Continued below: a report generated by a model with database tools. The report deals with a stretch of DNA of 64,000 nucleotides, taken from contig JBAUUR010000012.1 of the NCBI GenBank assembly GCA_049582805.1, positions 244-64,243 on the forward strand, written 5' to 3'. The stretch itself is not shown here. The stretch is from Gallionellaceae bacterium. GTDB lineage: Bacteria > Pseudomonadota > Gammaproteobacteria > Burkholderiales > Gallionellaceae.

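Novelty: I do not recall this pairing among named SIR2 systems (Thoeris, DSR1/DSR2, SIR2-HerA, SIR2-pAgo, AVAST type 5).

Hypothesis: the large protein senses infection and/or cleaves DNA, and the SIR2 protein depletes NAD+.
How to check it: Run HHpred and Foldseek on AlphaFold models of both proteins. Run DefenseFinder and PADLOC on the locus. Search genomes for homologue pairs and test conserved adjacency and enrichment near defence genes. Clone 1140-3700 with its native upstream region into E. coli, challenge with a phage panel and measure NAD+. Make point mutants N99A, H141A/H143A and D386A/E400A/K402A.
What would refute it: Profile or structure searches place the proteins in non-SIR2 and non-nuclease families, or in an already named system. 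Homologues are not genomically linked elsewhere. There is no phage protection or NAD+ effect on heterologous expression.
Basis: partly seen in the sequence, partly recalled or inferred. Interest (0 to 1): 0.85.

Follow-up and report, generated by a model that had tools for sequence, protein, structure and literature searches.

Organization of the locus

The initial annotation proposed that two co-directional genes between hsdS and an XRE-ImmA gene, here called A and B, form an undescribed two-gene anti-phage module in a type I restriction-modification (R-M) operon. ORF calls and GC counts confirmed both genes, their AT-rich composition and the spacers of 27 nt (hsdS-A) and 31 nt (A-B), and all quoted motifs and residue numbers are present. 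A and B have GC contents of 0.446 and 0.391, compared with 0.593 in hsdR and 0.571 over the window as a whole, GC3 is ~0.40 in both genes versus 0.77 in hsdR, and 1303-3676 has the lowest GC content among same-size segments of the window (rank 1 of 309). No hsdM homologue was found in the whole window (1-64000). It presumably lies just beyond the left edge; in related operons hsdM comes last, after the cargo. Without it there, the R-M system of the window could neither methylate nor restrict. Promoter, terminator or repeat signals delimiting cassettes did not rise above chance. The central conserved region of hsdS, which in type I specificity subunits determines the length of the recognition-site spacer, contains three imperfect 34-nt direct repeats at spacings of 42 and 90 nt. 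From its sequence, we take the small gene upstream of hsdR to be MazG-like.

Features of the locus
Feature	Position	Strand	Remark
Small gene	8168-8524		presumably MazG-like
hsdR	5074-7986	-	970-aa ORF
hsdS	3704-5077	-	457-aa ORF
Direct repeats in hsdS	4397-4562
A	2243-3676	-	477-aa ORF
B	1303-2211	-	302-aa ORF
XRE-ImmA gene	1-1137
HTH ORF	922-1137	-	part of XRE-ImmA gene

Predicted folds of A and B

A had been described as an N-terminal region matching nothing, followed by a restriction-endonuclease-like core, and this is supported by an invariant motif, the model topology and sub-threshold PDDEXK_9 matches. E352, E377, D386, E400, K402, Q416 and Y420 are invariant in 34 homologues; E368, an acidic core residue named initially, is not conserved, and E352 and E377 are conserved instead. 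In the model of A (pLDDT 80.7), the secondary structure follows the helix-strand-strand-strand-helix-strand order typical of a PD-(D/E)xK core, PDDEXK_9 matched just below threshold in 5 of 10 diverse C-terminal domains of the family, and the weak Foldseek matches, none of them significant, include many PD-(D/E)xK superfamily nucleases. The C-terminal region also weakly matched PDC-M15A, a PADLOC candidate defence-system model, and the C-terminus of NCBIfam EruA. Foldseek and sequence and profile searches found no relative of the N-terminal 345 residues. A did not match our local Pfam copy; its homologues have matches to the newer Pfam families PF28123 (DUF8370) and PF28130 (DUF8371), phrog_30194 (function unknown) matched A over its full length, and PADLOC PDC-M36A matched aa 25-216 only (5e-10). 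The family is large and uniform: clustering at 50% identity leaves 3291 representatives, of which nearly all are full length and 465-490 aa. In a plasmid protein of Bacillus thuringiensis, the A-type C-terminal domain stands behind a different N-terminus, and the nuclease module is therefore separable. A would act, like Shedu, as a self-contained nuclease, regulated by its novel N-terminus. On a Legionella adelaidensis plasmid (L171, 5992-7800), a 602-aa homologue adjoined by R-M and AbiE genes carries LEFTIS and LHIKH where the D...ExK residues have been lost, and it has gained a C-terminal extension of ~130 aa; it appears to be a derivative that is catalytically inactive.

B matched Pfam SIR2_2 (3e-8, above the gathering score), PADLOC ThsA (1e-11) and the PDB ThsA sequence (4e-5), and Foldseek with its confident AlphaFold model (pLDDT 89.6) returned ThsA (2e-10), the Kongming SIR2 protein KomC (4e-9) and DSR2 (1.5e-8). 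N99 and H143 align with the TTNY Asn and HGD His of ThsA; among 36 homologues N99 and H141 are invariant, H143 occurs in at least 90%, and the N-terminal glycine motif is GN(D/G)INN. These matches identify B as a bare immune-type SIR2 domain without fused sensor, which bears out the proposed SIR2_2/ThsA-type domain with catalytic residues. The AbiH profile matched B below threshold; AbiH is a stand-alone SIR2-like Abi protein of the "SIRim" branch (PMC13064643; bioRxiv 10.1101/2024.09.18.613514). B would act as an AbiH/ThsA-like NADase. One homologue (P0131, 61% identity; L177, 3089-5006) has Gln at the position of catalytic His143, lies downstream of distinct HTH_3 and Peptidase_M78 genes, which form a CapH/CapP-like pair, and adjoins E2/ThiF-type genes. 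Another (43% identity; L179, 4918-8951), in Salmonella Infantis SARB27, belongs to the cargo of an integrative conjugative element of PFGI-1 type and lies downstream of the helicase-like candidate PDC-S28.

Genomic neighbours and cassette boundaries

Linkage was examined from both sides, using two conserved peptide patterns per family and crude ORF calls in the retrieved loci. Metagenomes yielded 80 loci with a B homologue, on often short contigs. Their 122 immediate B neighbours comprise HsdM 9 times, DEAD/HamB-type helicases 5 times and anything else at most twice. In 7 of 10 loci with B at least 55% identical (window counted), hsdM starts 3-50 nt past B, which suggests B as a PrrC-like guard; however, these operons share ancestry, and hsd genes of any kind accompany B in just 11 of its 80 loci. 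In five loci (L082; L083, 6921-10885; L136; L168, 4758-8903; L176, 2337-6677), two of them without R-M, the Hachiman genes HamA-HamB lie directly upstream of a B-type SIR2 gene 44-73% identical to B. In these loci the SIR2 gene may be an accessory of a variant Hachiman system; B itself did not match a third Hachiman component in PADLOC. A ~400-aa protein family adjoins B homologues, on either side, in five further loci (L093, 4807-5994; L094; L125, 10903-12111; L149, 631-1830; L151, 632-1840), with a gap of ~35 nt in the three measured (L093, L149, L125). It had no Pfam or PADLOC match and may be a partner in one B subclade.

On the A side, one genome per species gave 80 loci from many phyla (37-59% identity). 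B was found by tblastn in none of them, all-against-all clustering of locus ORFs placed no family in more than 7, and any one Pfam family occurred at most 4 times among the 148 immediate neighbours. Integrases, serine recombinases, SLFN-type helicases with MazG-like genes, Fic, HNH, Shedu and IS21 genes recur around A homologues, and plasmid copies have integrases, TA pairs, R-M and AbiE genes adjacent. A helicase of SLFN group 3 (DUF2075) adjoins the A homologue in five loci (L015, L059, L063, L064, L166), with a MazG-like gene beside it, in varying orientation, in L015, L059 and L064 (Pfam-confirmed on L064).

Conserved adjacency was thus not found in 80 loci per side. The two-gene model survives only through B having no sensor and through L105 (8438-10891), the sole B locus of 80 with an A-family protein, where an A-like gene (23% identity; PDC-M36A 6e-25) precedes a B homologue (43%) by 67 nt. 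This co-directional pair is isolated between opposite-strand genes, and the closest relatives of its B homologue have different upstream genes. Together with these counts, relatives without the partner and a homology break in the spacer leave the single module unsupported.

Gene order in close relatives, which are few and phylogenetically related
Homologue (identity)	Gene order	Remark
A (87%)	hsdR-hsdS-A-128aa-DUF900-192aa-236aa-hsdM
A (85%)	hsdR-hsdS-A-107aa-420aa-AbiEi-AbiEii-hsdM
A (70%)	A after SLFN-type helicase
B (77%)	hsdS-PDC-S39-B-hsdM
B (73%)	HamB-B-hsdM	short contig, ends inside HamB
B (69% and 56%)	hsdS-HamA-HamB-B-hsdM
B (58%)	hsdS-DUF3800-B-hsdM
B (56%)	hsdS-CTD10-MC6/7-DUF2326-B-hsdM-McrBC
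B (57%)	HamA-HamB-B	no R-M
B (61%)	HTH-M78-B

The hsdR genes of related operons are 75-81% identical to that of the window at the DNA level. DNA homology with A-bearing relatives ends at the A stop codon (2243 and 2250) and that with B-bearing relatives covers 1285-2205 only, and a cassette junction therefore lies inside the 31-nt spacer. A is an hsdS-proximal and B an hsdM-proximal cassette, joined here through exchange between related operons.

Separate cargo in a type I R-M operon

The XRE-ImmA gene downstream of the pair, the third cassette of the operon, is present as annotated, but a frameshift at an A-run (near 970-978) breaks it in two. It matched capP and the RosmerTA antitoxin RmrA (7e-18; bioRxiv 10.1101/2022.05.11.491447). 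An identical frameshifted sequence occurs in a Logan contig (L172) from run SRR28023535, which may or may not be the window genome's own sample. This contig continues for 146 nt outside the window. Here another ORF (MTDGTARMLYSVDSSSFMDW...), which may encode the toxin partner, has a start that overlaps with the ImmA stop codon. Two loci support B and XRE-ImmA as a RosmerTA-like pair, but the combination is non-recurrent and the frameshift disrupts the antitoxin-like gene, whereas B is undamaged. A and B could also have no role in defence.

The most likely reading is that the hsdS-hsdM interval of this operon accommodates cassettes that can be exchanged for one another. Several of those found in such intervals are known defence modules, and defence genes embedded in type I R-M have been documented, as for PrrC and TgvAB (PMC11411939) and the PDC candidates, described as "guilt-by-embedding" examples (bioRxiv 10.1101/2024.01.29.577857). 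The locus is R-M-embedded defence-type cargo in an arrangement of an already known sort, and A and B are separate candidates, uncharacterised and probably of the single-gene type. Part of the remaining interest, which is modest, is in how B, a minimal SIR2, is controlled, and part in A, a predicted nuclease family, as yet uncharacterised, whose N-terminal fold is novel.
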